From contig JADGDK010000002.1 in NCBI GenBank assembly GCA_016744895.1, forward strand, positions 1 to 63,644: 63,644 nucleotides of DNA, written 5' to 3'. Numbering within the stretch: position 1 is the stretch's first letter; each line of letters opens with the position of its first letter. The stretch is from Campylobacterales bacterium. Lineage in GTDB: Bacteria; Campylobacterota; Campylobacteria; Campylobacterales; QNZT01. The notes beneath the pieces were generated by a model, which was not told the origin of the DNA, made no database searches, and saw only the letters and a list, made by a program, of their open reading frames with translations. This document shows, piece by piece, positions 31,567 through 52,621 of this stretch. The translations under genes were made by a program, and so were the position numbers.

Positions 31567-31590
31567 TTATTTATTTGTGTTATACTTATG

Positions 31591-31641
31591 GTTCCCCTCC
31601 CCCTATATGGCAGTAGGCTCTTTTGAGTCTGCTGTTTTTTT
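31591..31641 (+). ncRNA. Candidate ~50-nt sRNA with C-rich 5' seed and intrinsic terminator
   Basis: Extended -10 TGtTATACT (31578-86); CCCCTCCCCC (31594-603); 12-bp stem 31609-20/31625-36 followed by T-run. Confidence 0.55.
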
Positions 31642-31746
31642 CTACTAATTTATATCTTAAGCTTAAAATAAACAAAATTCAGTATAATTGCGCACTTAAA
31701 ACCCAATATCTTGTTATTAATATGCAAGAAAACATAAGGAAAAACA

Positions 31747-31947
31747 ATGAGAAAAGAAATACACCCAGACTATAAGACATGTCAAGTATCTTGTGCATGT
31801 GGACACAGCTTCGAGAGTAGATCAAACAAAGAAGAGATGAGAATCGATATCTGCAGTGAATGTCATCCATTTTTCACAGGTAGTGAGAAAATAGTAGATG
31901 CAGCTGGTAGAGTTGAGAAGTTTAAGAAAAAATATAACTTAAAATAG
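31747..31947 (+). CDS. rpmE: 50S ribosomal protein L31 (zinc-ribbon form)
   Basis: [31 protein letters not shown]; own TATAAT at 31683-88. Confidence 0.97.
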
Positions 31948-31954
31948 TGTTAAT

Positions 31955-32042
31955 AAAAAAGCGACTAGTTGCTAGGGCACTCTGCCGAAGAGAACTTAGC
32001 GATAGCGTAGCTTTTTGGGCTTTTGCTCACAAAGCGTAAAGA
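31955..32042 (+). other. Structured intergenic element with two mutually exclusive stems
   Basis: AAAAAGC/GCTTTTT, TTGCTAGG/CTTAGCGA, GGCA-ctc-TGCC; alternative GCTTTTTGGGC-tttt-GCTCACAAAGC. Confidence 0.6.
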
Positions 32043-32849
32043 ATGTTACATTTTGTCCCCACACCGATTGGGAATTTAGAAGATATAACTTTCAGGAGTC
32101 TTAGACTCCTTGAGAGTGCAAAGATTATCCTTTGCGAAGATACAAGAGTCACGAAACGACTTTTACACCTCCTTAAAACAAAACATGAAATTACTCCACA
32201 AGTTGAACAATTTATCTCACTTCATTCTCATAATGAAAAAGAGGTTTTAAACGAGCTTAATCCTTCGATGTTTGATGGTATAGTTTTATATGTCAGCGAT
32301 GCCGGCATGCCAGCAGTAAGTGATCCTGGATGTGCATTGGTTGAGTATTGTCAAAAGCATAAGATAGAGTATGATGTGCTTCCTGGTGCAAATGCAGCTT
32401 TATTAGCATATGCTTCTAGTGGCTTTTGTGATACAAGATTTCTCTTTTTTGGATTTTTACCACATAAGGGTGGAGATCGTCAAGATCAGTTAAAAGAAGC
32501 TTTATTTAATGGATTTGTGACAATTCTCTATGAATCACCTCATAGAATTTTAAAACTTATTGATCAGGTTTGTGAAATAGCACCAAATAGGGAGCTTTTT
32601 TTAATCAAAGAAGCAACAAAATTACATCAAAAAAGTTTCAAAGGAACTGCCAAACATATTCAGATGCTTTTACAAGAGCACAATATAAAAGGTGAATGGG
32701 TTGTAGTAATCAAAGGTGAGAAAAAAGAGATTGGTACAATTACAGTAGATGAAATTCTCAAACTTGACCTTCCAAAGAAGCAAATTGCCAAAATGATTGC
32801 TAAAATCACAGGAAAATCTCCAAAAGAGTGCTATAGTGATCTACTTTAA
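32043..32849 (+). CDS. rsmI: 16S rRNA C1402 2'-O-methyltransferase
   Basis: PTPIGNLEDIT, CEDTRVT, VSDAGMPAVSDPG, YESPHRI, KGEWV. Confidence 0.95.
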   Translation: MLHFVPTPIGNLEDITFRSLRLLESAKIILCEDTRVTKRLLHLLKTKHEITPQVEQFISLHSHNEKEVLNELNPSMFDGIVLYVSDAGMPAVSDPGCALVEYCQKHKIEYDVLPGANAALLAYASSGFCDTRFLFFGFLPHKGGDRQDQLKEALFNGFVTILYESPHRILKLIDQVCEIAPNRELFLIKEATKLHQKSFKGTAKHIQMLLQEHNIKGEWVVVIKGEKKEIGTITVDEILKLDLPKKQIAKMIAKITGKSPKECYSDLL

Positions 32850-32884
32850 CTATAGGTTAACTTTTTTTTAGTAAAATGTCACGC

Positions 32885-33562
32885 ATGATACTATACGGTA
32901 AACAAATATTTTTTTATATTGCAAAAAACTATCCAGATCTTATTGAAGAAATTTATTTGGCAAAAGATGTTGATAAAAAGACTTTTTCAACTATCACTAA
33001 GTTAAATAAAAAGATTATCAAACTTGATCCTATGAAAGCACAAAGCATGGCACGCGGTGGAAACCATCAAGGTTTTCTTTTAAAAACAAGTTTTATTGAA
33101 TTTGCTGAAGTTAAAGATCTTAAAAAGGAAGATTTTCTACTCGTGCTTGTTGGTATTACTGATGTTGGAAATATCGGAGCTATTATCAGAAGTGCCTATG
33201 CATTTGGTGTAGACGGTGTAATCGTCAGCGGTGTATCTTCTTTAGCGTTGGAAGGTGTAGTGAGAGCTAGTAGTGGTTCTGTACTTGCCATGCCTATAGC
33301 AATTTTTAAAGATACAGCAACCTTGGTAAATGAATTGAAGCAGATAGGTTTTAAAACTTATGCAGCGGATATGAGTGGTGACGATGTAAGAGATGTCCCT
33401 AGTAGTAAGAAAAAAGTTTTATTATTAGGTAGTGAAGGTGAAGGTATTTCAAATAGAATTTTAAAAATGTGTGACCAAAAACTTAAGGTTGTGATGGAGC
33501 GAGACTTTGATTCACTAAATGTGAGTGCAGCCGCAGCAATACTATGTGATAGGATGAGATAA
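32885..33562 (+). CDS. rlmB: 23S rRNA G2251 2'-O-methyltransferase
   Basis: NHQG, DVGNIGAIIRSA, GSEGEG, DSLNVS; start 32885 preferred over 32876. Confidence 0.92.
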   Translation: MILYGKQIFFYIAKNYPDLIEEIYLAKDVDKKTFSTITKLNKKIIKLDPMKAQSMARGGNHQGFLLKTSFIEFAEVKDLKKEDFLLVLVGITDVGNIGAIIRSAYAFGVDGVIVSGVSSLALEGVVRASSGSVLAMPIAIFKDTATLVNELKQIGFKTYAADMSGDDVRDVPSSKKKVLLLGSEGEGISNRILKMCDQKLKVVMERDFDSLNVSAAAAILCDRMR

Positions 33563-34612
33563 ATGGAAGAAGGCAAGAAACAACAGGAACAACATAGTGT
33601 TGATTATCTAATTAAGCAAGGGTATAAAAAACTTTCTGCAAAGACCTTTATTAGTGATGTTGATTTAGAGCAATTTTTAAATAAAGATTTTTCAAATATT
33701 AACAAAACACGGGCTTTAGGTTTTATTCAAATTTTAGAACGAGAGTATAATGTTGACTTAAGTGAGCTAAGATCGGATTATCTGACATATGAGAGTTCTC
33801 ATAGACCTGAGGAACCTGAGACACTTTTTACAGAGACTCCAATAGCAAATGATAAAGAGTGGCAAAAATATCTTCCTTTTATAGCGGCAGCTTTAGTCAT
33901 TTTTGGATTAGCCTTTTATCTATTTCGTCCAAGTATTGAGAGTGTTCAAACTCCAGAACCACAAATCAAACAATTAGAAGAAAATAAAAGTGTTATCAAT
34001 GAAGCTCAAAAAAATATTGAAAAACTTGAGACTAATAAAACGATAGTGACAGTTATTGAAAAGAATTTAACACAAGAGAACAATATATCTACTTTGTCAA
34101 AGACATCTACAAATGATGATCTAGACCTTGATAAAATAGTACTTCAAATGATGAAAGAGAGAAATATTTCATCCCAAGATTCTAACTTGACTCTTGATAT
34201 AAATAAGAGTATAAAAACTGTAAAAGAACCAATCGTTAATGAAGTTCAAAAGAAGCCAGCACCAGTAGTTATAAAAGATGTAGCTACTGGCTCTACAGTA
34301 AAAGAAGAATCTAAAAAGAAAATGTTAACAAAAAGAGAACTTTATATCAAGCCAAAACAAAAAGCTTGGGTAGGCGTTATATATTTAGATGATTTCACAA
34401 AAAAGGATTTTTTAATCCGTACTAAGTTACCATTAGATGCAAATCGTAACCAATTAATAATAGTAGGTCATGGAAAATTCAAAATTTTTAATAAATCCTA
34501 TTCTGTAAAGTTTAGAGGTAAAGGACCAGTAAGATTTATCTACAGAGATGGAGAATTAATGGAAATTAGTAAAAAAGAGTTTATTAGAACTAGTGCAGGT
34601 GTAGCTTGGTAA
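33563..34612 (+). CDS. RodZ-like single-TM protein
   Basis: N-terminal degenerate HTH (GFIQILEREY), TM, linker, C-terminal beta domain with WVG. Confidence 0.65.
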   Translation: MEEGKKQQEQHSVDYLIKQGYKKLSAKTFISDVDLEQFLNKDFSNINKTRALGFIQILEREYNVDLSELRSDYLTYESSHRPEEPETLFTETPIANDKEWQKYLPFIAAALVIFGLAFYLFRPSIESVQTPEPQIKQLEENKSVINEAQKNIEKLETNKTIVTVIEKNLTQENNISTLSKTSTNDDLDLDKIVLQMMKERNISSQDSNLTLDINKSIKTVKEPIVNEVQKKPAPVVIKDVATGSTVKEESKKKMLTKRELYIKPKQKAWVGVIYLDDFTKKDFLIRTKLPLDANRNQLIIVGHGKFKIFNKSYSVKFRGKGPVRFIYRDGELMEISKKEFIRTSAGVAW

Positions 34613-35421
34613 GAACCTTTGTAGTTTTATCATTATTATTAAGTTTTATCAACGCGAGTGCACTACATGTGGAACTTGAAAATATTTTAGGTCAAAATAG
34701 TTATTTAGCTAAAAAGAAATTTTTAAAGATTATTTTTAAAGATCAGCAGAAATTTTATGCAGGAAGTCAAGTAGATATCCATAAGGTGTTGTCAACACTT
34801 AAAGAAAATAATTTAATACGACTTGATTTTAAAAAAAGTAGAACGTTGCATTTAAGTTTTGCAACAGAACAGAATAATCCGTTAATTTTTATAAAAATGA
34901 TTCAAAATAGTTTGAATACACTAGGATATAATACACCTGTAACTGAAAAAGTTATGCGTGATTCTAGTGGGTTTTTATATAAAGTGATACTTAAAACTTC
35001 ATCAGCTGTTGATCCAGTTCTTTTTGCAAGTGAGTTAAAGAAACAAGGCTGTTATATTGCTCAAATGAAACGATATTCAAAAGTAAATTGGAGATACAAT
35101 ATTAATATATTTGATATAGATATTGTTCCAACTGAAACAATATTTAATAAAAAAATGGTTTTAAAAAAGCCATTAAATCCTTATTGGATTGATGTAGAAC
35201 GTGCTAAAACTTTAGTGGTTAGTAGCTCTAGATCAAATAGTTGGCATCCTTATATGGTTTTTTATGATAGAGATTTAAAAATTCTTGATACCATCTCAAA
35301 AGAGATAAAAAGCTATAATGAAAAACTAAGCATTCCACGAAATGCAAAATATGTAAAAATTAGCGATATATACACTCTTGAAAATATAAAAAGAGGGTTG
35401 AGCATTTACATATCAAAATAA
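34606..35421 (+). CDS. Conserved exported protein
   Basis: Signal peptide; YVKISDIYTLENIKRGL; syntenic before aminotransferase. Confidence 0.7.
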   Translation: MVRTFVVLSLLLSFINASALHVELENILGQNSYLAKKKFLKIIFKDQQKFYAGSQVDIHKVLSTLKENNLIRLDFKKSRTLHLSFATEQNNPLIFIKMIQNSLNTLGYNTPVTEKVMRDSSGFLYKVILKTSSAVDPVLFASELKKQGCYIAQMKRYSKVNWRYNINIFDIDIVPTETIFNKKMVLKKPLNPYWIDVERAKTLVVSSSRSNSWHPYMVFYDRDLKILDTISKEIKSYNEKLSIPRNAKYVKISDIYTLENIKRGLSIYISK

Positions 35422-35446
35422 ATAATTAAATATAGGTAAATAATAA

Positions 35447-36664
35447 ATGTTTGACGAAATACAATTTAACACAATAGATAGACTCCCAAATTATGTTTTT
35501 GCGGAGATTAATGCAATCAAATTAAAAGCAAGACAAAATGGCGAAGATATTATTGACTTTAGCATGGGAAATCCTGACGGAGCTACACCCCAGCATATCG
35601 TTGATAAACTTATAGAGACAGCGGGAAAACCTAAAAACTACGGATATTCTGCAAGTAAAGGAATTTTTAAACTTCGTTTAGCAGTTTGTAATTGGTACAA
35701 AAGAAAATATAATGTAGATCTTGATCCTGAAACTGAAGCAGTAGCCACAATGGGTTCCAAAGAAGGGTATGTACATCTTGTAAAAGCGATTACAAATCAT
35801 GGTGATGTCGCTGTGGTTCCTGAACCTGCTTATCCTATCCATACGCATGCATTTATCATTGCAGGTGGCAATGTTGTCAAAATGCCTTTGGAATTTAATG
35901 ATGCTTATGAATTAGATGAAGAAGTATTTTTTGATAATCTTCACAAAGCTTTTAATGAATCTATGCCTCGTCCAAAGTTTGTTGTTGTAAACTTTCCACA
36001 TAATCCGACAACAGTGACCGTAGAAAAACCATTTTATGAGAGACTTGTAGCACTTGCAAAGAAAGAGCGTTTTTATATTATTAGTGATATTGCTTATGCA
36101 GATATTACATTTGATGGTTATAAAACTCCTTCTATCCTTGAAGTTGAGGGTGCAAAAGATGTAGCTGTTGAGAGTTATACGCTTTCAAAAAGTTACAATA
36201 TGGCTGGTTGGAGAGTTGGATTTTTTGTAGGAAACCCAAAGATGATCGGTGCACTTCAAAAGATCAAATCATGGTTTGATTATGGAATGTTTACGCCTAT
36301 TCAAGTGGCGGCTACTGTTGCACTTGATGGTCCACAAGAGTGTCAAGATGAGATTGTTGCAAAGTATAAATATAGAAGAGATGTTCTTTGTGAGAGTTTT
36401 TATAATGCTGGATGGGCATTTGAAAAACCAAAATCTTCTATGTTTGTTTGGGCAAAACTTCCTCCTGAAGCTGCGCATTTAGGTAGTATGGAATTTTCAA
36501 AACAACTCTTAACAGAAGCCAAAGTTGCTGTAAGTCCAGGAATTGGATTTGGAGAACATGGTGATCAATATGTGCGTATTGCTTTGATTGAAAATGAAAA
36601 AAGAATTAGACAAGCTGCACGAAATATAAAAAAATATTTACAAACTCTGAAGGATGCTAAATAA
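35447..36664 (+). CDS. PLP aminotransferase class I/II (LL-diaminopimelate aminotransferase / AlaC-like)
   Basis: LPNYVF, FSMGNPD, GSKEG, NFPHNPT, DIAYAD, TLSKSYNMAGWRVG. Confidence 0.9.
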   Translation: MFDEIQFNTIDRLPNYVFAEINAIKLKARQNGEDIIDFSMGNPDGATPQHIVDKLIETAGKPKNYGYSASKGIFKLRLAVCNWYKRKYNVDLDPETEAVATMGSKEGYVHLVKAITNHGDVAVVPEPAYPIHTHAFIIAGGNVVKMPLEFNDAYELDEEVFFDNLHKAFNESMPRPKFVVVNFPHNPTTVTVEKPFYERLVALAKKERFYIISDIAYADITFDGYKTPSILEVEGAKDVAVESYTLSKSYNMAGWRVGFFVGNPKMIGALQKIKSWFDYGMFTPIQVAATVALDGPQECQDEIVAKYKYRRDVLCESFYNAGWAFEKPKSSMFVWAKLPPEAAHLGSMEFSKQLLTEAKVAVSPGIGFGEHGDQYVRIALIENEKRIRQAARNIKKYLQTLKDAK

Positions 36665-37933
36665 ATGGTAAATGTAGCAATTATCGGTGTTGGTACTGTA
36701 GGACAAAGTGTAGCAAAGATTTTAGAAGATAATAAAACTCTTATCAGTGCAAGAGCAGGAAAAGAGATCAATGTTGTTAAAGGTGCAGTACGTGATTTAT
36801 CCAAAAAACGTAATACTACAATTGCTTTGACAGATAATATAGATGAAGTATTAAGTGATGACTCTATTGATATTGTAGTAGAGCTTATGGGTGGTGTTGA
36901 TGAACCTTTTAAAGTTGTTAAAAAAGCACTCACCAATGGCAAGGCTGTAGTAACTGCAAATAAAGCACTTCTTGCCTATCATCGATATGATTTACAAGAG
37001 ATTGCGGGAGCACTTCCTATCGGTTATGAAGCGAGTGTTGCAGGTGGAATTCCTATCATTAACGCTCTTAAAGTTGGTCTAAGTGCAAATCAAATCATGT
37101 CTATTAAAGGTATCATGAATGGTACATGTAACTATATGCTGACAAAGATGAGCCAAGAGGGTGTCAGTTTTGATGCCATTTTAAAAGAAGCACAAGAGTT
37201 AGGATACGCTGAGGCTGATCCTACATTTGATATAGGTGGATTTGATGCCGCACATAAGCTTTTGATTTTGGCTTCTATTGCTTATGGTATTGATGCAAAG
37301 CCTGAAGATATTTTGATTGAAGGTATTGAAAATATCAATGGACATGATATAGAGTTTGCAAAAGAGTTTGGCTATAGCATTAAACTTTTAGCAATTGCTA
37401 AAAAATCAGGAAACAATATTGAGCTTAGGGTTCACCCCGTATTGATTAAAGAGTCACAGATGATTGCTAAAATTGACGGTGTGATGAATGGTGTTAGTGT
37501 AATTGGCGATTTTGTAGGTGAAACTTTATATTATGGTGCTGGTGCTGGTGGAGATGCTACTGCAAGTGCTGTGGTTTCAGATATTGTAGAAATTGTCAGA
37601 GCTGGGCAAAGTTCACCGATGTTAGGATTTAAAAAGCCTCATGAGAGTCAGATTTTAAAATTGATCTCTACTGATGAGATAGAGAGTGAGTATTATCTTA
37701 GAATGAGAGTTCAAGATAAATCGGGTGTGTTAGCGACCATAGCTCAGATTTGTGCAGATAATGAAATATCACTTGAAACCATTTTACAAAAAACAACAGA
37801 TGATAAAAATATAGCGATGCTTTTATGTGCAACACATCTATGTAAAGAGAAACAGATAAAACAAGCGATCAGCGAAATTGAAGCGTTGGAAGCTTTAGAA
37901 GATAAAGTTTCTATGATTAGGATAGAAGAGTAA
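36665..37933 (+). CDS. hom: Homoserine dehydrogenase with ACT domain
   Basis: GVGTVG, VVTANK, EASVAGGIP, AQELGYAEADP, GAGGDATASAV. Confidence 0.97.
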   Translation: MVNVAIIGVGTVGQSVAKILEDNKTLISARAGKEINVVKGAVRDLSKKRNTTIALTDNIDEVLSDDSIDIVVELMGGVDEPFKVVKKALTNGKAVVTANKALLAYHRYDLQEIAGALPIGYEASVAGGIPIINALKVGLSANQIMSIKGIMNGTCNYMLTKMSQEGVSFDAILKEAQELGYAEADPTFDIGGFDAAHKLLILASIAYGIDAKPEDILIEGIENINGHDIEFAKEFGYSIKLLAIAKKSGNNIELRVHPVLIKESQMIAKIDGVMNGVSVIGDFVGETLYYGAGAGGDATASAVVSDIVEIVRAGQSSPMLGFKKPHESQILKLISTDEIESEYYLRMRVQDKSGVLATIAQICADNEISLETILQKTTDDKNIAMLLCATHLCKEKQIKQAISEIEALEALEDKVSMIRIEE

Positions 37934-37944
37934 AAGAGTAGTGG

Positions 37945-40008
37945 ATGAAAAAGATTGATTCAGTTTGTGCATATTGTGGAGTTGGCTGTGATATAGAAGC
38001 TAGCGTTGAAAATAATCAAATTCAATCAATCACCGCACGACCTGAAGGTGAAGTAAGTGAAGGTGAGCTTTGTATCAAAGGTAAGTTTGGCTTTGATTTT
38101 GCCCAGTCACCAAATCGCCTGAGTGCTGTTAAAATAAAAAAGAGTTTTATTGATAAAAATATACTTTTTTTACCCAAAGCTTTAAAAGATAATTTACTCA
38201 CTTATGAAGTAGATGAAAATGGATATATCTATCCACCTGTTGCATTGGCGTATCAATTAACTGCTTGGAAAATAAAGACAATCACTTCTCAACATGGAAA
38301 TACCTCTTATGCTTCTATTGGTGGGGCTAGAGGAAATTGTGAAAGTTCATATTTGCTTCAAAAGTTTACCAGACAAGTGGTGAAGTCTCCACATATTGAT
38401 AATTGTGCACGTGTATGTCATGCTCCTACATTGAAGGGCATGCGTTCTATTATTGGTGAAGGTGCGGCGACAAATCCATTTAGTGATATCAAAAACTGTG
38501 AATTTATGATTGTTATTGGTTCAAATACTACAGAAGCACATCCCATAGTGGCAAATAAAATTATAAGAGCGAAACAAAATGGTACTGGTTTAGCAGTATT
38601 TGATGTACGTGATATCGCTTTGTCTAAGTTTGCTGATTTTAATTGTGTGATTCCCTATGAGTCAAATCTTCTTATTTTAAATATGCTTGCGTTTATTATC
38701 ATCAGTGAAGAACTTTATGATAAAGATTTTATTGAAAATAGAAGTCTAGAATTTGAAAATTATAAAGCGCAAATTTTAAATGATCCTTATTGTGACCCTG
38801 AGTTTTTTCAGCAGATCGAGGGTTATGAGTATTTAACTCAATTACTTAAAAAAGTAGCAAGGGATTATGCTTCTAAAAAATCACTGATACTTTGGGGACT
38901 TGGAATCACAGAGCATCTTGATGGAAGTTATGCAGCAGCTGCTATTTGTCATTTGGCAGTGATGACGGGAAATGTTGGCAAAAGTGGAGCAGGGCTTATG
39001 CCCCTTCGTGGTCAAAATAATGTTCAAGGCACATGTGATATGGGTTGTTTACCATACTACAATCCAGACTATGAACAACCTCTAGTGGAAGGTAAAAAAA
39101 CACCTGATATCATAAATGCTATAGATGCTGGTGAAATTAAAGTACTCTTTAATATGGGTGAAGATATTGCACATATCCATCCAAATCAAAACAAGATCCA
39201 AAGCGCATTGAAAAAGCTTGATTTATTGGTTGTAAATGAACTTTTTGATAATGAAATTACACAGTTTGCTGATATTGTATTTGGTGTCAAAAGTGCTTAT
39301 GAAAAAACAGGTGTTTATGTCAATGCTGAGCGTCGTTTACATCTCTCCCAACCACTGATTACAAGTGATCTTCCGGATGACTGGGAAGTATTACACGGTA
39401 TCTCTAAAGCACTTGATTGTGATTTTGGATATAAGAGTAGTAGAGATATTTGGGATGAAGTTCAGGTAGAAGTACCTAAACGATTTTTAGGTGCCAATTA
39501 TGATAAGTTGGAAGCAAATAGAGTTAGAGGACTTCAGTGGCCAGTGACTGAAAATGATTTACCGATTTTGCATATTGATGCTTTTAGAACCAAAAATGGT
39601 TTAGCAACTTTTAGATATAAAAAATATGTCTTAAGAGGTCAAGTCAAAGAGATTTTAAATGATAACAGAGATAATTTTTATCTCACAACGGGACGTACGC
39701 TTGCCCATTATAATAATGCTGCACAAACTAAAGAGAGTCCCAAACTGATTAAAAAACATGGTGAAGATGTTTTGATGGCAAGTACAGAGGATGCAGAATT
39801 TTTTACAGATAAAACTCATGTTGTATTAAGATCGAGATATGGCAAAACTGAGTCTTTGAAAATTAAACTCTCAAAAAGAGTTAAAAAAGGAACGTTATTT
39901 ACTACCTTTCACCATGCCAAATCAAAGATCAACTTTTTGTTTGGAGATGAGAGTGATGAATTAACAAAAACTGCACGGTTTAAATCGATCAAGGTTATTG
40001 TTGAGTAG
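37945..40008 (+). CDS. Molybdopterin oxidoreductase, FdhF/formate dehydrogenase alpha-like (Cys ligand)
   Basis: [13 protein letters not shown] 4Fe-4S; DNCARVCH; GSNTTEAHP; [10 protein letters not shown]; TTGR..HYN; no Tat signal. Confidence 0.85.
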
Positions 40009-40321
40009 GCAAAAAGGTAATTTTGCTGAAGATAGAGCAGTTGACTATCTGCAAGGATTAAATTTTTTGGTGATAGATCGAAACTATTACTCACGTTTTG
40101 GTGAAATTGATATCATTGCGACAAAAGATGAAATTTTACATTTTATTGAAGTTAAAAGTGGAGAGTATGATCCTATCTATCAGATTACACCTTCTAAACT
40201 TTCCAAAATACAAAAAACTGCTCAGATCTACATGAGTAAAAAGAGACTAGATATGGATTTTTGCATAGATGCATTAATCGTCACAGAAAATATTGAATTA
40301 ATCGAGAATATAACATTATGA
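39998..40321 (+). CDS. yraN: YraN (UPF0102) PD-(D/E)XK nuclease family
   Basis: GNFAE, RNY, GEIDIIA, HFIEVKS. Confidence 0.9.
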
Positions 40322-41664: not shown

Positions 41665-41724
41665 AATACTTTACTAAAAAGCCGTGGTATGTTATAATCC
41701 CAAAAATTTTTGAGGGTTAATTAG

Positions 41725-42285: not shown

Positions 42286-42300
42286 GACACTTGTCCTGTT
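42281..42300 (+). terminator. Short hairpin after dcd
   Basis: AATAGGAC / GTCCTGTT stem. Confidence 0.45.
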
Positions 42301-42418
42301 CTAAAATAGTTATGAATGATAATTATTTTAAATTAAGTTTATTGTATTATCGAAATAGATCTGTTTATATATTGAAGGTAACTTATGCAATTTCCTATTA
42401 TTCTACAAGGTATATATT

Positions 42419-44662: not shown

Positions 44663-44724
44663 TTCGTAAAAGCATATCTGCTATGCTATAATTATTTTTT
44701 ACATCTTAAACTATAATGAGTCTT

Positions 44725-46056
44725 ATGAAACGCTTTGAATTACTACAAGTCACCAAACATTTAGCACAATATAAAAAGATCAATACCATTGAAAAAGTAG
44801 ATGATACGATCATCAAAATTGCATTTGATAGAGATACACCCTATTTTTTTGATATGAAGCGTGGAGGGTCATTTATATTTAAAAAGGAGGGTTATAAAAA
44901 AGTTAGAAATTATAATTCTCCTTTTGATGTGGTACTTACTAAGCGTTTTACCAATGCTAAAATTCAAAATATGGAGGTTATGGAAGGTAATAGAATTCTT
45001 AGAATATACGTTCAAACGAGCTCAAAGTATAAAGCACAACTTTCAATTTTACAGTTTGAATTTACAGGAAGAAATACCAATGTAATTATCTTAGATGAAT
45101 ATGGTGTGATTCTTGAGGCATTTCGTCACATTGATAGTAAAAACTCTTTTCGTGAAGTTAAAGTGGGAATAGTATTAGCGCCATTACCTGCTAGAGAATT
45201 TGTGGAGCATAAGGAGGAGATTAAAGATATTGAATCATATCTTTACAATGCGTATGAGAAATTAGAAGTTTCTAGGCTTATTACGATAAAAAATCAGAAG
45301 ATTCTTACAATCTCTAAAAAATTGAAAAAATTACAAAAGAGTTATGATCGATTAGAGGATGAAGATAAGCTTCTGGAAAAAAGTAGTACACTTCAAATGG
45401 ATGGTAATTTAATTCTTTCAAATATTCATAATATGCGTAATTATCAAAAAGAGATTGAAGTCTTGGATTACGAAGGAAATACTAAAGTTATTTACCTTCC
45501 CGAAGATATACGAACTCCTTCAGAAGCTGCGAATAGATTATTTACAAGATCTAAAAAACTTAAACAAAAAGCAAAAAACACCTATATAGAAAGAGAAAAC
45601 CTCTCTTCTAAACTTACCTTTTTAAAAAGACTTCAAAAAAGTATCACTTCATCACAAACTATTGATGAAGTTAACCTTTATCTTCCAAAACAACCTAAAA
45701 AGATAAAAAAAGAGATTAAAGAGGATGCAAATATTGAATCTTTTTTTATTGAAGGGTATAAAATTACTCTTGGAAAGAATGAAAAAGGCAATATTACACT
45801 TCTTAAAACAGCAAAAATGAGTGATATTTGGATGCATCTTAAAGATATGCCTTCAACTCATGTTATAATAAGAAATGATAAAAAAAATGTCCCAGATTTA
45901 GTCTTGGAATTTGGAGCAAAGCTTTGTGTGCAGTTTAGTGCAGTTTCAGAAGGTTCTTATTTGGTCGATTATACCTATAGACGAAATGTGAAAATGCGTG
46001 AAGGTGCTAATGTTAATTATGTAGAGTATAAAACGATACAGGCTATGAAGAACTAG
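44725..46056 (+). CDS. NFACT/RqcH (FbpA-like) ribosome quality-control protein
   Basis: EFTGRNTNVII, coiled coil, GKNEKGN, DIWMHLKDMPSTHVII NFACT-R domain; start 44716 or 44725. Confidence 0.88.
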   Translation: MKRFELLQVTKHLAQYKKINTIEKVDDTIIKIAFDRDTPYFFDMKRGGSFIFKKEGYKKVRNYNSPFDVVLTKRFTNAKIQNMEVMEGNRILRIYVQTSSKYKAQLSILQFEFTGRNTNVIILDEYGVILEAFRHIDSKNSFREVKVGIVLAPLPAREFVEHKEEIKDIESYLYNAYEKLEVSRLITIKNQKILTISKKLKKLQKSYDRLEDEDKLLEKSSTLQMDGNLILSNIHNMRNYQKEIEVLDYEGNTKVIYLPEDIRTPSEAANRLFTRSKKLKQKAKNTYIERENLSSKLTFLKRLQKSITSSQTIDEVNLYLPKQPKKIKKEIKEDANIESFFIEGYKITLGKNEKGNITLLKTAKMSDIWMHLKDMPSTHVIIRNDKKNVPDLVLEFGAKLCVQFSAVSEGSYLVDYTYRRNVKMREGANVNYVEYKTIQAMKN

Positions 46057-46065
46057 GAGGTTCAT

Positions 46066-46383
46066 ATGGCAATTACTCAGTTACACGGTATATTATTTGC
46101 AAATCAAAATATGCAAGTTGCTGCTTCCAAGCAAATAGATATGCAAGGAAGAATAGATTTTCAAAATATTGCAGCTGCAGCTGCAGCAAATGACAAGAGT
46201 AGAGAGATTGAAGAGACTAGACCCACAGAAGAGGGTAAAGGTGTAGATCCTGATCGCGAGCATAATAAAGAACGTGCAGATCAAGAAGCTGGTGAAAAAG
46301 CTGAAGAGATAAAGACAAAGTCTGATAAAAATAGATCTGAAGATAAAACACATACAACGCACTTATTAGATATAAAAGTGTAA
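46066..46383 (+). CDS. Conserved small hydrophilic protein
   Basis: AGGAGG RBS; NQN, VDPDREH, C-terminal HLLDIKV. Confidence 0.75.
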   Translation: MAITQLHGILFANQNMQVAASKQIDMQGRIDFQNIAAAAAANDKSREIEETRPTEEGKGVDPDREHNKERADQEAGEKAEEIKTKSDKNRSEDKTHTTHLLDIKV

Positions 46384-46453
46384 ATCTACTACTAAATATT
46401 CAGCACTAATTGACCACAAAACTACTATAATTTTACTCTAAAAGGTGACATAT

Positions 46454-47218
46454 ATGATTCAAAATATTTTAAAAAATCTTGATAAAGAACGAATTACTAC
46501 AGGGCTAGCACTTATTGGAGCTATGGTTTTATTGGCTTGGATAGATAACTCATTTTTAACGTGGTTATTTTTAGGGGTTGCTTTTATGTTTTCTTTTTAT
46601 GAAGCTATGAAACTTTTTGACATTGATGATAACTCTATGTATGTTTATGCATTAGTACTTTGGATTATCTCTTTTTTCTATATTAATCCTGATGATTTGA
46701 TTTTTGTTGCTTTAATTGTATTTGCATCTATGATGATTTATAAAGGTGAAGTAGATTTTAAAAAAACTTATGTATTTTTATATCCAACCAGTTCATTTCT
46801 TTTTCTTTTAGCCCTATATAAAGGTTTTGGAATGGAGAGCCTAGTTTGGTTAGTGATTGTAGTTGCTTTAACTGATACAGGAGCTTATTTTGTAGGTCGT
46901 TCTTTTGGTAAAACTAAGTTTTGCGAAGTCTCTCCTAAAAAGACTTGGGAAGGTGTAATTGGTGGTGTTGCATTGGCTACAATAGTTGGAGCTTATTATG
47001 GTACACAGTTTGTATCTCCTTTTCTTTCGTTCTTTATCTCGTTGATCGTCTCTTTCTCATCAATTTTTGGAGATCTTTTTGAGAGTTATCTCAAAAGAAC
47101 AGCTGGTGTTAAAGATAGTGGAAATGTACTTCCAGGTCATGGTGGTGTACTTGACCGTGTTGATGGATATATGTTTGGGGCAGTTTTGATGGTTATTGCC
47201 CTTAGGGGACTTAGTTGA
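46454..47218 (+). CDS. cdsA: Phosphatidate cytidylyltransferase
   Basis: DTGAYFVG, SPKKTWEG, GDLFESYLKR.AGVKDSG..LPGHGGVLDRVD. Confidence 0.96.
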   Translation: MIQNILKNLDKERITTGLALIGAMVLLAWIDNSFLTWLFLGVAFMFSFYEAMKLFDIDDNSMYVYALVLWIISFFYINPDDLIFVALIVFASMMIYKGEVDFKKTYVFLYPTSSFLFLLALYKGFGMESLVWLVIVVALTDTGAYFVGRSFGKTKFCEVSPKKTWEGVIGGVALATIVGAYYGTQFVSPFLSFFISLIVSFSSIFGDLFESYLKRTAGVKDSGNVLPGHGGVLDRVDGYMFGAVLMVIALRGLS

Positions 47219-48282
47219 TTCTTCTTGGAAGTACGGGTTCTATAGGTGTTAATGCGCTAAATATCGCTCGAAAATTTGATCTTGAGGTTGATGTTTTAGT
47301 CGCTGGAAATAGTATTGCACTTTTAAATGAACAAATTAAAGAGTTTCACCCTAGCATTGTTGTTATCGCAAATAAAGAGTCTGTTAAAGATGTACAGCAT
47401 CATAATGTGTTATATGGTGAAGAGGGAATTTTAGAGGCAATTAATAAGAGTAATAGTCAGAGTGTTGTTAATGCATTGGTTGGATATGTAGGTTTAAAAC
47501 CTACATTGGAGTCTATAAAGTTAGGTAAAAAAGTTGCTTTAGCAAATAAAGAGTCTTTAGTAGTGGGTGGAAAATTTGTTGATACTTCAAATATCACACC
47601 AATTGATAGTGAACATTTTGGTCTTTGGTATCTTTTGAGTGATAAAAAGATTGATAAAATGACAATTACTGCTAGTGGTGGTTCTTTTCGTGACACTCCA
47701 CTTGACATGTTACAAAATGTAACTATCCAACAGGCTCTAAATCATCCAAATTGGAGTATGGGAAAAAAAATTACTATTGATAGTGCTACGATGACAAATA
47801 AACTTTTTGAACTGCTTGAGGCTAAGTGGTTATTTGATATTGATAATTTAGATGCAATTATGGAGACAAAATCAATTATACATGCACTTATAGATTTTAA
47901 AGATGGAAGTTCGACGGCACATATTGCGTCAGCTGATATGAAACTTCCTATTGCTTATGCATTATTGGGAAAGGTGGATGATCAAATTTTAAAGCCAGTC
48001 GATCTAGTATCAGTTGGAAATTTAGAATTTAGATCTATAGAATCTTCAAGGTATCCAATATGGCAAATTAAAGATGATATTTTAAGAAAACCACACTTAG
48101 GAGCAGTGATAAATGCAGCTAATGAAGTTGCAATAGCTCAATTTTTTGAAAAAAAGATATCATATATGGAAATTTCTAAAATTTCTTTAAGTGCATATAA
48201 AAAGTTTTATGATTATAATCCTACATCAATTGACGATGTATTTGAAATAGATAGGGAAGTACGAAACTTCGTGTTAAAGTAA
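47215..48282 (+). CDS. dxr: 1-deoxy-D-xylulose 5-phosphate reductoisomerase
   Basis: LGSTGSIG, LANKESLV, PIDSEH, HPNWSMGKKITIDSAT, NAANE. Confidence 0.97.
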   Translation: MILLGSTGSIGVNALNIARKFDLEVDVLVAGNSIALLNEQIKEFHPSIVVIANKESVKDVQHHNVLYGEEGILEAINKSNSQSVVNALVGYVGLKPTLESIKLGKKVALANKESLVVGGKFVDTSNITPIDSEHFGLWYLLSDKKIDKMTITASGGSFRDTPLDMLQNVTIQQALNHPNWSMGKKITIDSATMTNKLFELLEAKWLFDIDNLDAIMETKSIIHALIDFKDGSSTAHIASADMKLPIAYALLGKVDDQILKPVDLVSVGNLEFRSIESSRYPIWQIKDDILRKPHLGAVINAANEVAIAQFFEKKISYMEISKISLSAYKKFYDYNPTSIDDVFEIDREVRNFVLK

Positions 48283-48291
48283 GGATAAACC

Positions 48292-48495
48292 TTACTTTTT
48301 AAACGTGTTGTAAACTCTTTGTAAATCTTCGTAGTTAATTTCACTATTTTCTGTAATAAAAGTGATTGCTTCGTACGGATCTTCATCAGTAATTTCTAGT
48401 GCTTCTTCTAGTAATGTCGCTAATGCATCATCATCAAGAGTGTCTAAATCTATTTCGCTCAATGTCCCAAGCAATTCTAATTCTTCAACAGTCAT
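48292..48495 (-). CDS. Small acidic hypothetical protein
   Basis: 67 aa, AAGGA RBS, fills intergenic gap, very D/E-rich. Confidence 0.6.
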   Translation of the reverse strand: MTVEELELLGTLSEIDLDTLDDDALATLLEEALEITDEDPYEAITFITENSEINYEDLQRVYNTFKK

Positions 48496-48747
48496 GTCTC
48501 ATCCTTATTTGTATATAAATATTTTTTATTTTCACAAGCATCGGTTAAAATGCCAATAACTTTAGAGTATTAGAAAAATTAATACTCACCTTGAAATAAA
48601 ATTGAATTTTACATGAAAATAATTAAAGTATGCTGAAATTACTATGGTAAAATATATTTTTATAATATTTCATTTTTAACTACTTAAGTAAAATCATTTA
48701 ATGTTAAAAATGCTATAGTAGTTTAATAAACTATTAAGGAGTTATAA

Positions 48748-49194
48748 ATGAAAAAAGTATATATTATAGCTAGTACATTATTGTTAACATCATCATTAAG
48801 TGCTGAAGTACATAGAAATACAGGGTGTGGTTTGGGAAGTATGATTATCGAAAATCAAAATACAGTTGCCAAACAAGTTCTTGCTGCTACAACGAATGGA
48901 ACATTTGGAAATCAAACATTTGGTATCACTACAGGTTCGCTAAACTGTAATAAACCATATACAGTAGTTTCAAATGAAAAAATAGAGAAGTTTGTAGCAG
49001 ATAACATGGATGCATTGGCAGTAGATATCGCAACTGGAAATGGTGAAAATCTTGATACACTTTCAACACTTATGCAAGTTGATGATAAAGCATCTTTTTC
49101 AAAACTATTAAAAGCAAATTTTTCTAAAATATACTCGAGTGCTGATGTAACATCTGCTGATGTTATTGATGCAATTTCTACTATTACGGGATAG
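48748..49194 (+). CDS. DUF3015-family exported protein
   Basis: Signal peptide, GCGLGS, AATTNGTFGNQTFGITTGSLNC, NMDALAVDIATGNGE. Confidence 0.85.
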   Translation: MKKVYIIASTLLLTSSLSAEVHRNTGCGLGSMIIENQNTVAKQVLAATTNGTFGNQTFGITTGSLNCNKPYTVVSNEKIEKFVADNMDALAVDIATGNGENLDTLSTLMQVDDKASFSKLLKANFSKIYSSADVTSADVIDAISTITG

Positions 49195-49197
49195 ATC

Positions 49198-50943
49198 TTG
49201 TTAAGAAAAGGCATATATATATGCCTTTTCTTCATTTTTGTACCTCTTTCTCTTTTTACATATGAGATTTCAAATCTTCATAATGATCGTTACTGGCATA
49301 CACTACTTCATTTTAAAAATAGTACAAGTGAAATTGATGATAAAAAGTTTTTTCTTTCAACAAATGGTAAATATAATGCTAAGGAAGAATTACAGGCAAC
49401 TATTGAAGCATTACTAAAAGATAAAAATAGAATATTTTGTAAATTTCCTGCCCGTTCTCAGTGGATTTTGAAAAATATTCCAGAGTTAAAAGATAAGATT
49501 GGAGCATATTCTTGTTCTCAGATTGATAATCTTATAGAAGATTATGATCCAAAAAGTATTTCACTTATTTTTCCAACAGCACATATTAATGCTCCATCTT
49601 CTATGTATGGTCATAGTTTTTTACGGATTGATCATGATAAAAAAACACCACTGATATCACAGGCTATAAATTATGCAGCTCAAACTAGGGAATCCAATGG
49701 CTTACTTTTTGCCTATCATGGTCTTACAGGTGGGTATGATGGGAAGTACTCAATAACACCATATTATGAAAAAATCAAAGAGTATAATGACATGGAGCGT
49801 AGAGATATTTGGGAGTATGATCTAAATTTAAATGAAGAAGAGATTAAACAGCTTCTTTATCATCAATTTGAACTTAAAGATTATTCTGCAGATTATTTCT
49901 TTTTTACAGAAAATTGCTCTTATAATCTTTTATGGCTTTTAGAATCTGCTAGGAGTAGTGCACATCTTACTGATAAATTTAACATAAAAGCAATTCCTAT
50001 TGATACGATTCGAGCAGTTCAGAATGAAGGTTTTGTGAAAGAAGTATTATTTCGTCCATCAAAGAGTAAAAAGATAAAAAAGATTGTTCAAAAAATTGAT
50101 GATATGGTGATAGCTAAAACATTTTTAAAACAAAATTATAATGCAGAAATTATCAAAGATCAAGCTCTAGAACAACAAGCTTATATACTTGATTTATCTT
50201 CTGAAATACTAAGATACAAACGTGCTAAAAATAAAATTGTGAAAAAAGAGTATGTTGATGCTCTTATGAAAATTTTAAAACAAAGAAGTCAGATTGATAT
50301 TAAAAGTAATTATCCTATCTTAGAACCTTCTCGTCCACTTGAGGGGCATAAGACAAATAGATTGACTGTTTCATCAGATAAAGATTCATTTTTACTCTCG
50401 TTTAAACCTTCATTTCATGATATTTATGACATCGAACGTGGTTTTATAGAGGGTGCATATATTAACTTTTTTGATTTATCAATTCGAAAAGATCATGGGA
50501 GAAGTGTAAAATTACAGAAATTTGATATTGTAAATATTGCTTCTTATGCTCCAAGAGATCAAATATTTAAACCTCTATCATGGGAAGTTTCATTTGGATG
50601 GAAACGAAATTATAAGGATGTATTGGAATTTAAACTAAAAGGTGGGGCAGGGCATAGTTATGAACATATGGGATTTTTGTATTATATTTTTTTAGATCCA
50701 TCACTTTATATAGGTGAAAAACTATCAGCTTCTCTCTCACCTAAAGTTGGAATGATTAAAAACTTTTCAACCTTTAAATTTGGTGCTACAGCACAAAAAG
50801 AGTTCTTTTCACATGGAGATGAAATAACAAATGTTGAAGTTTTCTCAACATATAGTCTGCATAAAGATATATCCTTAAATCTAAAATATGATATAACAGA
50901 TTCCAAAAAAAGAGGAATGTTTTCTCTTTTTTACTATTTTTAG
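49198..50943 (+). CDS. DUF4105 (Lnb N-terminal-like) domain protein with probable C-terminal beta-barrel
   Basis: W..LLH, CKFPAR, SMYGHSFLR, ERRDIWEY, YFFFTENCSY; C-terminal FYYF. Confidence 0.82.
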   Translation: MLRKGIYICLFFIFVPLSLFTYEISNLHNDRYWHTLLHFKNSTSEIDDKKFFLSTNGKYNAKEELQATIEALLKDKNRIFCKFPARSQWILKNIPELKDKIGAYSCSQIDNLIEDYDPKSISLIFPTAHINAPSSMYGHSFLRIDHDKKTPLISQAINYAAQTRESNGLLFAYHGLTGGYDGKYSITPYYEKIKEYNDMERRDIWEYDLNLNEEEIKQLLYHQFELKDYSADYFFFTENCSYNLLWLLESARSSAHLTDKFNIKAIPIDTIRAVQNEGFVKEVLFRPSKSKKIKKIVQKIDDMVIAKTFLKQNYNAEIIKDQALEQQAYILDLSSEILRYKRAKNKIVKKEYVDALMKILKQRSQIDIKSNYPILEPSRPLEGHKTNRLTVSSDKDSFLLSFKPSFHDIYDIERGFIEGAYINFFDLSIRKDHGRSVKLQKFDIVNIASYAPRDQIFKPLSWEVSFGWKRNYKDVLEFKLKGGAGHSYEHMGFLYYIFLDPSLYIGEKLSASLSPKVGMIKNFSTFKFGATAQKEFFSHGDEITNVEVFSTYSLHKDISLNLKYDITDSKKRGMFSLFYYF

Positions 50944-50954
50944 GATGGGTATAG

Positions 50955-51941
50955 ATGATACTTAGTATTGAAAGCAGTTGTGATGATAGCTCTATAGCGA
51001 TAACAGAAATAAAAACAAAAAAGCTTATGTATCATAAAAAAATTTCACAAGAATTAGAACATTCACAATATGGTGGAGTAGTCCCAGAACTTGCTGCACG
51101 TCTTCATGCAACAGCACTTCCAAAAATACTCGAAGATGTGAAGAAGTTTTTCCCACATTTAAAGGCAATTGCAGTAACAAATCAGCCAGGCCTATCTGTT
51201 ACCTTAGTTGAAGGTGTGGCAATGGCACAAGCCCTCTCTATTTCATTAAACCTTCCCATCATTGCGGTTAATCACCTTCATGGTCATATCTATTCGCTTT
51301 TTATTGAAAAAGAGACACATTTTCCGCAAACAATTCTTTTGGTTTCTGGTGGACATACACAGGTTATAGAAGCCAATGGATTTGAAGATTTTAAGATTCT
51401 TGCTTCTACTATGGATGATAGTTTTGGAGAGAGTTTTGATAAAGTCTCTAAAATGCTTGGACTTGGTTATCCTGGTGGTCCAGTAGTTGAAAAGTATTCA
51501 CAAACAGGTGATATGGATCGGTTTAAGTTTACCATTCCACTTTTACACTCTCCAAAGATCGCTTTTTCTTATTCAGGTTTAAAAAATCAAGTACGTTTAC
51601 AGATTGAGGCATTGGGTGATTTGAGTGAAGATGATAAGTCTGATGTCTGTGCCTCTTTTCAAAAAACTGCTTCTGCACATTTGATACAAAAACTCAAAAA
51701 GATATTTAAAACAAAACAAATCAAAGATTTTGCAATAGTTGGTGGTGCGAGTGCCAATCTTTATCTAAGAGGGGAGATAGAAAAACTTTGTAATGTTCAT
51801 GGTACCAAGCTACATTTGGCTGAGTTAAAGTTTTGCTCAGACAATGCAGCTATGATAGGTCGATATGCTATTGATGCATACCATCAAGGTAAATTTTCCA
51901 AATTTGATGAAATAACTTCAAGCCCTAAGGTTACGATATAA
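50955..51941 (+). CDS. tsaD: tRNA threonylcarbamoyltransferase
   Basis: [47 protein letters not shown]. Confidence 0.96.
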
Positions 51942-52397
51942 AGTTCTCATCAAAAGTGCTAAAAGTGCAAATGTAAAAAGTTTAAAATCAAGTTCACTTG
52001 CGAAGTGTAGGTTTCCAAAAAGTGTACTTTCTGTAATACCCTCACCCTTTTTTTGCATCTCTAAAATTTGGGGTATATAATAAAATGAGTATAAAAGTCC
52101 ACTAGAGATTACTAAAAAAGCAGGTATTGTGGTGATGACTTCTCGATCATACATTTTATACTTATAGCCCTCATAAAGTACAACAATCAAAACAGTAAAA
52201 GAGACTAAATAGCCAAGTCTTACAAAGTTTTCAGTCATGATAAGCCCCTCTTGAAATCGTGTTAAAATTTCACTTCCAAGGTAGAGTTCGCTATGGAACG
52301 TTACAGGTGCAACAACAATCCCAGCAAAGAGTCCAGCTCCTAACATTGCTCCTAAAATCAAGATATATATCAGTGTGAGATATTTAGGTATTTTCAT
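51918..52397 (-). CDS. DUF4149-family membrane protein
   Basis: 4 [26 protein letters not shown]. Confidence 0.75.
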
Positions 52398-52452
52398 ATA
52401 AATCCTTTTAATTTTCTAATTAAGATAAATTTTATCCTATTTGTACTATAAT

Positions 52453-52540
52453 TCTCCTGTAGCAAGTTACTCTTACTGCTATATAGGCAGAGGGGACGGT
52501 GCGTATCCTTTCGCACCGCTGTCTTATTTCTTTAAATTTC
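52453..52540. ncRNA. Candidate structured sRNA locus, possibly a sense/antisense pair
   Basis: TATAAT on + (52447-52) and on - (52546-41) facing each other; stems TGTAGCA/TGCTATA, GGCAG/CTGTC, CGGTGCG/CGCACCG; 21/25 identity (minus strand) to 31593-31617. Confidence 0.55.
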
Positions 52541-52621
52541 ATTATAGTTTAAAACTACAACTTGTATAATGATAAGTATAATTCATATAATTATTATTAA
52601 AACTTATACAAGGAATCTAAA

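Follow-up and report, generated by a model that had tools for sequence, protein, structure and literature searches.

Complementary small RNA candidates at rpmE and behind a putative stress-responsive operator in a Campylobacterales genome

Two intergenic loci, 21 kb apart, appear to encode a pair of small RNAs (sRNAs) with complementary cores in a 63,644-nt stretch of DNA from a Campylobacterales bacterium (hereafter the window, in whose positions all coordinates are given; the whole assembly has 3.08 Mb and 33% G+C). RNA 1 lies just before rpmE, the gene for ribosomal protein bL31, and RNA 2 lies between genes for a DUF4149 and a DUF3373 protein, behind a palindromic operator. Positions 31593-31617(+) match the reverse complement of 52472-52496 at 21 of 25 nt, and as both RNAs would be read from the plus strand, the shared 25-mer makes the loci complementary and not similar. 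The reading towards which we lean, with modest confidence, is an antagonist pair, in which an rpmE-linked RNA 1 and a stress-controlled RNA 2 would be mutually pairing sRNAs. The anatomy of the loci, their conservation, the linkage to rpmE, the complementarity and the sharing of the operator with other genes were all computed here.

Genes and features at the two loci

Locus 1 lies between an rsmE-type 16S rRNA methyltransferase gene (30904-31566, plus strand; Pfam PF04452 and PF20260) and rpmE (31747-31947, plus strand; Pfam PF01197, 107.5 bits), which codes for a Cys-containing form of bL31. A consensus scan placed a candidate promoter for the C-rich RNA, P1, at 31558-31586(+), made up of TTGATT, 17 nt and TG-n-TATACT (TG at 31578-31579, -10 box at 31581-31586). 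Its -35-like TTGATT overlaps the last codons and the stop of the methyltransferase gene, CTCTTGATTTAA, and the family of the source genome (f1; in what follows, f labels denote families and g labels genera within f1) keeps the CTTGATTTAA stretch. In the homologues inspected, the extended -10 box (TGnTATAAT or TATACT) stands at a constant spacing from the C-tract. RNA 1, a candidate leader or attenuator RNA of about 50 nt (31591-31641, plus strand), consists of a C-rich 5' strand, UUCCCCUCCCCCUAUAU (about 31592-31608), which begins about where transcription from P1 would be expected to start, a hairpin (31609-31636) and a U7 run (31635-31641). In the minimum free energy (MFE) fold, at -17.8 kcal/mol, the C-rich strand is unpaired. 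The terminator-like site combines a GC-containing stem of 12 pairs with the U7 (T7 in the DNA) tail, and the stem is supported by covariation.

Between RNA 1 and rpmE we found a second candidate promoter, P2 (31683-31695, plus strand), with a -10 box TATAAT at 31683-31688 followed by a GC-rich GCGCAC, which we take to be the promoter for rpmE. The GC-rich box (GCGCACC or CGCTCC), directly 3' of the -10 box, is conserved in two families and is reminiscent of the GC-rich discriminators that ribosomal promoters under stringent control have. Downstream of P2, in the 5' untranslated region (UTR) of rpmE and just before its Shine-Dalgarno sequence, there is a small hairpin, CUUGUUAUnnnAUGCAAG (31710-31728, plus strand), whose stem shows paired changes across f1 on inspection (CUUG/CAAG, CCUG/CAGG, GUCUG/CAGAC). 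In the P2 transcript, it may be this hairpin that serves as the leader element bound by bL31. A leader peptide was considered for RNA 1, as a 12-codon frame opens at the ATG at 31588, and was rejected: many homologues lack the ATG, and indels of 1-2 nt in the C-tract shift the frame. No conserved alternative antiterminator pairing was found by eye or in the MFE folds.

Locus 2 begins with a DUF4149 membrane protein gene (51918-52397, minus strand; Pfam PF13664), divergent from RNA 2 and likewise placed in 12/15 related loci. A 25-bp palindromic operator, AATTAAGATAAAtTTTATCCTATTT (52418-52442), covers the -35 and spacer region of the RNA 2 promoter, whose -10 box TATAAT (52447-52452, plus strand) is found at the same place in 21/21 homologous loci inspected. 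This promoter was missed by a scan for two hexamers because the operator replaces the -35 box. We describe RNA 2 as a candidate sRNA of about 75 nt (52459-52533, plus strand), formed by a variable 5' hairpin (52459-52479), the core CUUACUGCUAUAUAGGCAGAGGGGA (52472-52496), a GC-rich 3' hairpin (52497-52518) and a U-rich tail, these last two forming a terminator-like site on the plus strand; its MFE is -23.5 kcal/mol. A porin-like DUF3373 gene (52622-54067, plus strand; Pfam PF11853) follows.

The match between both cores, with its coordinates, reproduces exactly what the original prediction had described. Read as two plus-strand RNAs, the cores form 23 bp in two helices (7 + 16) around a 2x2 internal loop, with two G-U pairs (RNAduplex, -39.5 kcal/mol), in agreement with the 23 of 25 positions, counting G-U, that had been predicted. 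The cores also sit, as had been noted, in GC-richer structured islands, with 47% (locus 1) and 44% (locus 2) G+C against 29% and 27% in the surrounding spacers, and they fold better than shuffled sequences (z = -3.7 and z = -3.1, respectively). Block shuffling of the whole 3.08-Mb assembly, repeated 20 times, never produced a match of at least 21/25 (the best score was mostly 18 and reached 20 in one copy), and 0.00 occurrences of the 25-mer with up to three mismatches are expected in the window.

The original prediction had named a high-copy repeat or miniature inverted-repeat transposable element (MITE) as a finding that would overturn it. Only two good copies of the 25-mer (up to six mismatches) exist in the source genome, along with three poor 19/25 matches, two of which were checked and fall within open reading frames (ORFs), so the 25-mer is not such a repeat. 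A dispersed repeat, for which nothing speaks beyond the similarity itself, is refuted by this copy count and has practically no probability left; a covariance model (CM) of RNA 1 finds a single match in the source genome, and each locus has its own conserved synteny. Copy numbers should be taken with caution, since the assembly may be a mix of two strains: it is about 0.6-0.8 Mb larger than those of its genus relatives, has a contamination of 5.4% and contains two Fur-family matches of near-equal score.

The rpmE-linked RNA in the Campylobacterales

Lack of conservation in relatives was another outcome that would have told against the original prediction, and both loci turned out to be conserved. 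What that prediction had overlooked is that locus 1 occurs across the order and is tied to rpmE, that locus 2 is limited to a few genera, and that the operator of locus 2 is shared with oxidative-stress genes. BLAST searches with an 81-nt query that included the promoter recovered locus 1 from 27 of the 31 family genomes (85-96% identity, E <= 2e-5). In the alignment of 28 copies the hairpin is paired at 99.3% and shows compensatory changes. The CM built from this alignment (CM R1), which matches the window at 31589-31640 with 77.6 bits, detected RNA 1 in 39 of 151 sampled Campylobacterales genomes belonging to seven families (f1, 9/9; f11, 8/10; f18, 8/9; f24, 4/4; f4, 5/10; f23, 3/9; f8, 1/10) and had no match in the 19 other families of the order that were sampled. 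Among the matches listed, the metagenome-assembled genomes bearing the motif are labelled Sulfurimonas, Sulfurospirillum, Hydrogenimonas, Nitratiruptor or Campylobacterales. Across 49 copies the hairpin is 98.7% paired with compensatory changes in 6 of 10 pairs, in an alignment that was fitted to the model and hence favours its structure. Many of the pairs are G-U, which would be A-C on the opposite strand, so they fit the plus strand only.

The linkage to rpmE is nearly complete. This gene follows RNA 1 on the same strand in 48/49 loci (47 by script, at 53-412 nt after the motif, with locus L071 added), and the remaining locus has no rpmE within 900 nt. The arrangement differs between lineages. 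A U-run of at least four follows the hairpin in 27/28 f1 loci versus 2/21 loci of other families. Outside f1, the distance from the hairpin to the rpmE start is 23-188 nt (23-75 nt for 16 of 21 loci) and no promoter is visible between the hairpin and rpmE in the closely spaced loci, an organization in which RNA 1 is, as judged from sequence, the 5' leader of rpmE in most families. Within f1, a -10 box followed by a GC-rich box, of the P2 type, was found by regular expression in 15/28 loci; the same search found one f18 locus, and similar boxes are visible in other f18 loci. Four f1 loci have the terminator-like hairpin only 38-62 nt before the rpmE start, leaving no room for another promoter, which makes it a putative attenuator there. 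The f1 hairpin would thus have gained a U-run and, in many f1 genomes, rpmE a promoter of its own. The window has both the U-run and a second candidate promoter for rpmE, so in the source genome RNA 1 is probably released as a free, terminated, attenuator-derived sRNA of about 50 nt. One and the same element would thus occur as a leader, as an attenuator or as a terminated free RNA depending on the lineage.

Neither locus matches a described family in Rfam, and the original prediction had recognised none either: the window gave no match at gathering score, the surroundings of locus 1 gave nothing at E <= 10 except a sub-threshold sbrA, and Rfam 15 models on 14 related loci, leader-type ones included, gave nothing at E <= 0.05. 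The Listeria sbrA candidate (RF01489) was rejected, as it scores 27.6 bits, below the threshold of 45, the alignment covers no helix but the terminator, which is generic, and the first sbrA helix would have non-standard pairs and an 8-nt gap on RNA 1. In five loci (L005, L007, L008, L015 and L016), some 40 nt of conserved sequence, approximately CUCCUCGGCGGAGUGCCC..CAGAUGAAC, are inserted between the terminator and rpmE; this insert has hairpin potential and no Rfam match at E <= 0.01. In L007, a match to FsrA, a Fur-regulated sRNA of Bacillus, lies about 500 nt from the RNA 1 copy (2051-2124, plus strand; 34.7 bits versus a threshold of 80) and is probably due to chance.

What the C-rich strand might bind other than RNA 2 was looked for in several ways. 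The original prediction had offered, as one of its two options, paralogous anti-Shine-Dalgarno sRNAs. At the rpmE start the C-rich strand pairs poorly (mean -6.1 kcal/mol in 47 loci), and the value for the rpmE of the source genome, -6.0 kcal/mol, is unremarkable, as 79% of 2980 background start regions are equal or better; anti-Shine-Dalgarno action on the rpmE ribosome-binding region found no backing here. The MFE folds of leader-type loci pair the C-rich bases with AGG or GGA stretches, which is generic. Of the other strong genomic partners of RNA 1, those that were checked mostly fall within coding regions, with no ORF call for a few, and none is a convincing mRNA target. Contig C288 has a perfect 14-nt complement that is without counterpart in relatives, and the matches with one mismatch that do recur in relatives are antisense to a conserved coding motif, NPSPYMF, of what we take to be a chorismate-utilising enzyme. 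The mRNA for this motif reads CCCUCUCCCUAUAUG (loci L264-L272), and its likeness to the C-rich strand of RNA 1 accounts for the recurrent pattern matches; this likeness is probably coincidental, and the mRNA is conceivable as an RNA 2 target. Matches in Oscillospiraceae from the scan of the collection were also discarded, as they fall in a conserved coding region, presumably that of carbamoyl-phosphate synthase. By analogy with other L31 leaders, binding of bL31 by RNA 1 is a reasonable guess. In the region upstream of locus 1, the minus-strand ORF at 26046-30386 encodes a secreted protein of 1446 aa, in which a module starting with ...EYR(M/F)DEC.W.G... occurs as three repeats.

The second RNA, its strand and its operator

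The relatives of locus 2 share a common layout of palindrome, about 4 nt, TATAAT, variable 5' hairpin, core, 3' hairpin and U-rich tail. Across these loci the invariant core is (C/U)UUACUGCUAUAUAG..GGGGA, and the only stretch of RNA 2 conserved in sequence is the part complementary to RNA 1, as both hairpins drift. The 3' hairpin differs in sequence between genomes and keeps its pairing in every homologue. The CM of RNA 2 (CM R2; 52472-52528 in the window, 64.7 bits) matched in 5/6 genomes of g1 (a contig end truncates the sixth copy), 11/11 of g7, 2/3 of g6 and 1/1 of g2, with no match in genera g3, g4, g5 and g8. When 401 genomes of the order were searched with a strict RNA 2 pattern, every match beyond g1 and g7 was either RNA 1 antisense or coding sequence, and no true copy turned up outside the family; g6 and g2 were added by the CM. 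From this distribution RNA 2 appears to be younger than RNA 1 and limited to four genera of f1.

The strand of RNA 2 is what separates a complementary pair from the paralogues of the original prediction, that is, C-rich anti-Shine-Dalgarno sRNAs or leaders with locus 2 read from the minus strand in the 5' UTR of DUF4149. In that orientation the cores are identical at 21/25 positions, the window has a minus-strand promoter-like site (TATACA-16-TATAAT, 52568 to 52541), and the minus strand folds too (-23.3 kcal/mol, z -2.6). The minus-strand -10 box is not conserved, with hexamers in 6/15 loci at scattered distances, and the minus strand has no U-run. The plus-strand TATAAT, by contrast, is present in all 21 loci, and the 3' hairpin is more stable on the plus strand in 10/15 loci and contains G-U pairs, also in 10/15, that become A-C mismatches on the minus strand. 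Furthermore, the DUF4149 gene retains an operator beside its start in genomes without the RNA 2 element. Promoter, G-U pairs and terminator-like hairpin put the RNA of locus 2 on the plus strand, as a candidate sRNA gene of about 75 nt, and we regard the paralogous reading as very improbable. Between the two options of the original prediction, the comparative evidence thus favours the trans-encoded complementary pair, of the antagonist or sponge-like kind, and loci 1 and 2 are better described as two different RNA genes with complementary cores, paralogy not being supported.

A more serious rival accepts the same pairing and exchanges the roles: locus 2 would be the front of a long, operator-controlled 5' leader of DUF3373, and RNA 1 a trans-acting sRNA that targets its G-rich site, comparable to the C/U-rich sRNAs of Helicobacter and Campylobacter. 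A DUF3373 homologue does start about 85-120 nt after the locus 2 hairpin, on the same strand, in 10/15 related loci, and the g6 and g2 loci have one downstream as well. Several genomes show an imperfect U-tract behind the hairpin, and RNA 1 is built like an sRNA with a 5' seed and a strong terminator. Against such a leader, TATAAT boxes that we read as a conserved promoter stand between the hairpin and DUF3373 in the window and in relatives, 3 of the 13 loci not cut by a contig end have no DUF3373 downstream, several homologues have good hairpin-plus-U-run terminators, and the pairing site and the start codon are more than 100 nt apart. This is the main competitor of the antagonist pair, and we judge it quite unlikely.

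The operator has the consensus AATTARGATAAAwTTTATCyTAATT, is conserved at all RNA 2 loci inspected and ends 4 nt 5' of the -10 box. With a position weight matrix, the RNA 2 operator was the top score in its own genome, where further sites are on contigs C326 (33205), C330 (1996), C7 (1573) and C299 (17722). Sites of this genome precede a Redoxin/AhpC-family gene, a TonB-dependent receptor gene led by a TPP riboswitch and a molybdopterin oxidoreductase gene. The TPP riboswitch (RF00059, 70.1 bits; L274, 1878-1978, minus strand, corresponding to contig C330) has its promoter under the same palindrome. Five relatives have 3-11 operator sites per genome versus 0-1 for the reversed control, and the genes flanking them include Redoxin/Tpx in 5/5 and desulfoferrodoxin in 3/5, along with MsrA-MsrB, DUF4149, ThiC, the NiFe hydrogenase small subunit and molybdopterin oxidoreductase; DUF3373 joins this set through RNA 2. 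Beside DUF4149 in one genus (L039, in genome G011, contig C45), an operator-controlled promoter drives a different sRNA-like sequence, with a hairpin, an A/C-rich stretch and a strong terminator, and the true RNA 2 of that genome is elsewhere, with its own operator and adjoining tpx. The regulon of this operator may therefore hold more than one sRNA.

An inverted repeat at the promoter, with the same operator 5' of peroxide and superoxide defence genes, is what we looked for as a mark of PerR-like control, and it is present. The centre of the operator resembles the 7-1-7 boxes of Fur-family proteins. The set of defence genes together with this Fur-like shape suggests that the regulator is a Fur-family repressor, PerR-like and responsive to peroxide or oxygen stress. 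The assembly has six Fur-family ORFs, none of which is assignable to the operator. HsrA (HP1043) fits less well as the binding protein and was set aside, as its motif, in the part of the literature drawn on here, is the direct repeat TTTAAG-N5-TTTAAG and the operator is a symmetric inverted repeat.

Predicted pairing and its place among known systems

Extended complementarity between two separately encoded RNA candidates, as expected of a sponge pair, is present and conserved. In all 18 genomes with both RNAs the predicted duplex has -27.7 to -39.3 kcal/mol, versus -7 to -11 for shuffled sequences, and always consists of a GC-rich helix of 4-7 bp and a helix of 12-15 bp, usually with a small variable internal loop between them. 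For the window RNAs, the gain of the full-length cofold over the separate folds is -17.1 kcal/mol. Genome-wide, both RNAs are reciprocal best non-self partners, RNA 1 with -39.5 versus -36.4 kcal/mol for the next and RNA 2 with -39.5 versus -30.8. In one genome an additional C in RNA 1 is matched by an additional G in RNA 2, and in another a U-to-C change in RNA 2 converts a G-U pair to G-C.

Several observations weigh against an antagonist pair. Cognate pairs are not better than non-cognate ones (permutation p = 0.17), and since RNA 1 is almost invariant, co-evolution cannot be shown. The advantage of RNA 2 over the next genomic partner of RNA 1 is only about 3 kcal/mol, and the core of RNA 2 can fold on itself. 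The terminator hairpin of RNA 1 stays closed in the full-length cofold, so that the equilibrium does not favour its disruption. The C-rich strand is equally invariant in families that lack RNA 2, which means that its primary partner must be something else. At locus 2, the U-tract is weak in several genomes and the same-strand DUF3373 gene would allow RNA 2 to belong to a longer transcript. Finally, the name PerR-like is drawn from the gene content and from the shape of the operator, with its Fur-family 7-1-7 layout.

Three of these points, namely the non-significant covariation, the closed hairpin and the invariance of the C-rich strand in families without RNA 2, speak for a reading in which the complementarity has no function and is a leftover of an inverted duplication or chance, with RNA 1 acting only in cis or with a protein (for instance, in bL31 autoregulation) and RNA 2 on other targets. 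Such a reading has to accommodate that across four genera the sole conserved stretch of RNA 2 is the complement of RNA 1 in the midst of freely drifting hairpins, that the duplex is retained in every genome with both RNAs, that they are reciprocal best partners genome-wide, that one genome has matched insertions and that the shuffled genomes never reached 21/25. We hold it to be unlikely.

Under the antagonist reading, a Fur-family, PerR-like repressor would probably release the RNA 2 promoter under oxidative stress, as suggested by the operator being common with the genes for thiol peroxidase, superoxide reductase and MsrAB. The RNA 2 core would then pair with the first 25 nt or so of RNA 1 through two helices, one GC-rich of 6-7 bp and one of 12-16 bp, in a duplex that would cover the entire C-rich strand and extend into the 5' arm of the RNA 1 hairpin. 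Mutual antagonism is the likely outcome, with the C-rich strand sequestered and the long duplex probably cut by RNase III. In genomes that keep RNA 1 attached to rpmE, the pairing would amount to stress-dependent control of the rpmE leader, and in the g2 genome, which has RNA 2 and no room for a second promoter, it would act on the rpmE transcript directly. Transcription of both RNAs is predicted from promoters, terminators, covariation and conservation; that they pair in the cell, which regulator acts and which way the effect goes are likewise predictions. Antitermination by RNA 2 was rejected in view of the closed terminator in the equilibrium cofold and is retained as a minor variant only. 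In a wider and more tentative proposal, to which we give clearly less credence than to the pair itself, the peroxide or oxygen-stress regulon of sulfur-oxidising Campylobacterales would include an sRNA dedicated to the leader or attenuator RNA of the zinc-ribbon bL31 gene, and stress would reprogram the supply of bL31, or the activity of a C-rich riboregulator, through RNA-RNA pairing.

Almost all work on riboregulation in the Campylobacterota concerns Campylobacter jejuni and Helicobacter pylori, and L31 leaders are not known from the phylum. The motif reported here is an uncatalogued rpmE-linked RNA in seven families of vent, sediment and groundwater Campylobacterales, and its invariant 5' strand must have a conserved partner. 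It also provides a natural series in which the same element would be found as an mRNA leader, an attenuator and a terminated free RNA. RNA 2 and the shared operator suggest a testable link between oxidative stress and the synthesis of a cysteine- and zinc-containing ribosomal protein, and the operator defines a candidate oxidative-stress regulon for f1. If the proposal is true, RNA 2 would provide the first known case of a ribosomal-protein leader targeted by a trans-acting sRNA, and such a leader would be seen turning into a free-standing sRNA. The literature searched had no description of an rpmE-linked RNA or of an oxidative-stress sRNA in Sulfurimonas-like bacteria, a search outside which stand the supplements of PMC3847290 (a table of C. 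jejuni noncoding RNAs) and PMC7247131, which could bear on this point.

The closest relatives in kind are the leaders of L31 genes, and rpmE of Escherichia coli is reportedly autoregulated. RNA 1 is like such leaders in being a single covarying hairpin with conserved flanks, before rpmE on the same strand. This is the form of the five L31 leader motifs described by Eckert & Weinberg (2020, PMC7247131), which come from Actinobacteria, Coriobacteria, Corynebacteriaceae, Firmicutes and Gammaproteobacteria, with none from Campylobacterota in the parts of that paper drawn on here. RNA 1 differs in having no Rfam 15 match, as a motif of its own, and its long invariant C-rich 5' strand, the U-run of f1 and the second rpmE promoter are not among the features listed in those parts (PMC7247131).

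As regards antagonism, the nearest case within the same bacterial order is CJnc190 of C. jejuni, an sRNA acting on a G-rich site and opposed by a complementary RNA, CJnc180, with the duplex processed by RNase III (Svensson & Sharma 2021, PMC8687705, as far as drawn on here). The pairs FlmE/FlmR (PMC11187230) and CjNC140/CjNC110 (PMC10470494), for which these papers were likewise used in part, are further sRNA-sRNA pairs of C. jejuni. Both CJnc190/CJnc180 and the pair proposed here would combine an sRNA with a complementary antagonist. Unlike CJnc180, which is cis-antisense at the same locus, RNA 2 is encoded in trans, 21 kb away, and is complementary over about 25 nt.

RepG of H. pylori, an epsilonproteobacterium without Hfq, uses a C/U-rich loop to pair with a G-repeat in the tlpB leader. 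Compared by description only, RNA 1 is similar in offering a C/U-rich unpaired region as a pairing surface; it differs in having this region at its 5' end and not in a loop, and no G-rich mRNA target was found for it here. Other trans-acting sRNAs, such as rnTrpL and SreA, derive from attenuators or riboswitches. Like them, RNA 1 would arise from a 5' leader by termination and may act in trans; unlike them, it has no leader peptide and no evident ligand-binding fold. RosA and RoxS of Bacillus subtilis are an sRNA sponge pair in which RoxS uses C-rich stretches. The likeness here is that of two separately encoded sRNAs predicted to pair, with one tuning the other, and RNA 1 is C-rich like RoxS. 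There is no sequence relation, and the present pair differs in that one partner comes from a ribosomal-protein leader and the other belongs to an operator regulon linked to oxidative stress. The pair is not a member of any described family, and we place RNA 1 by kind among the ribosomal-protein leaders and attenuator-derived sRNAs.

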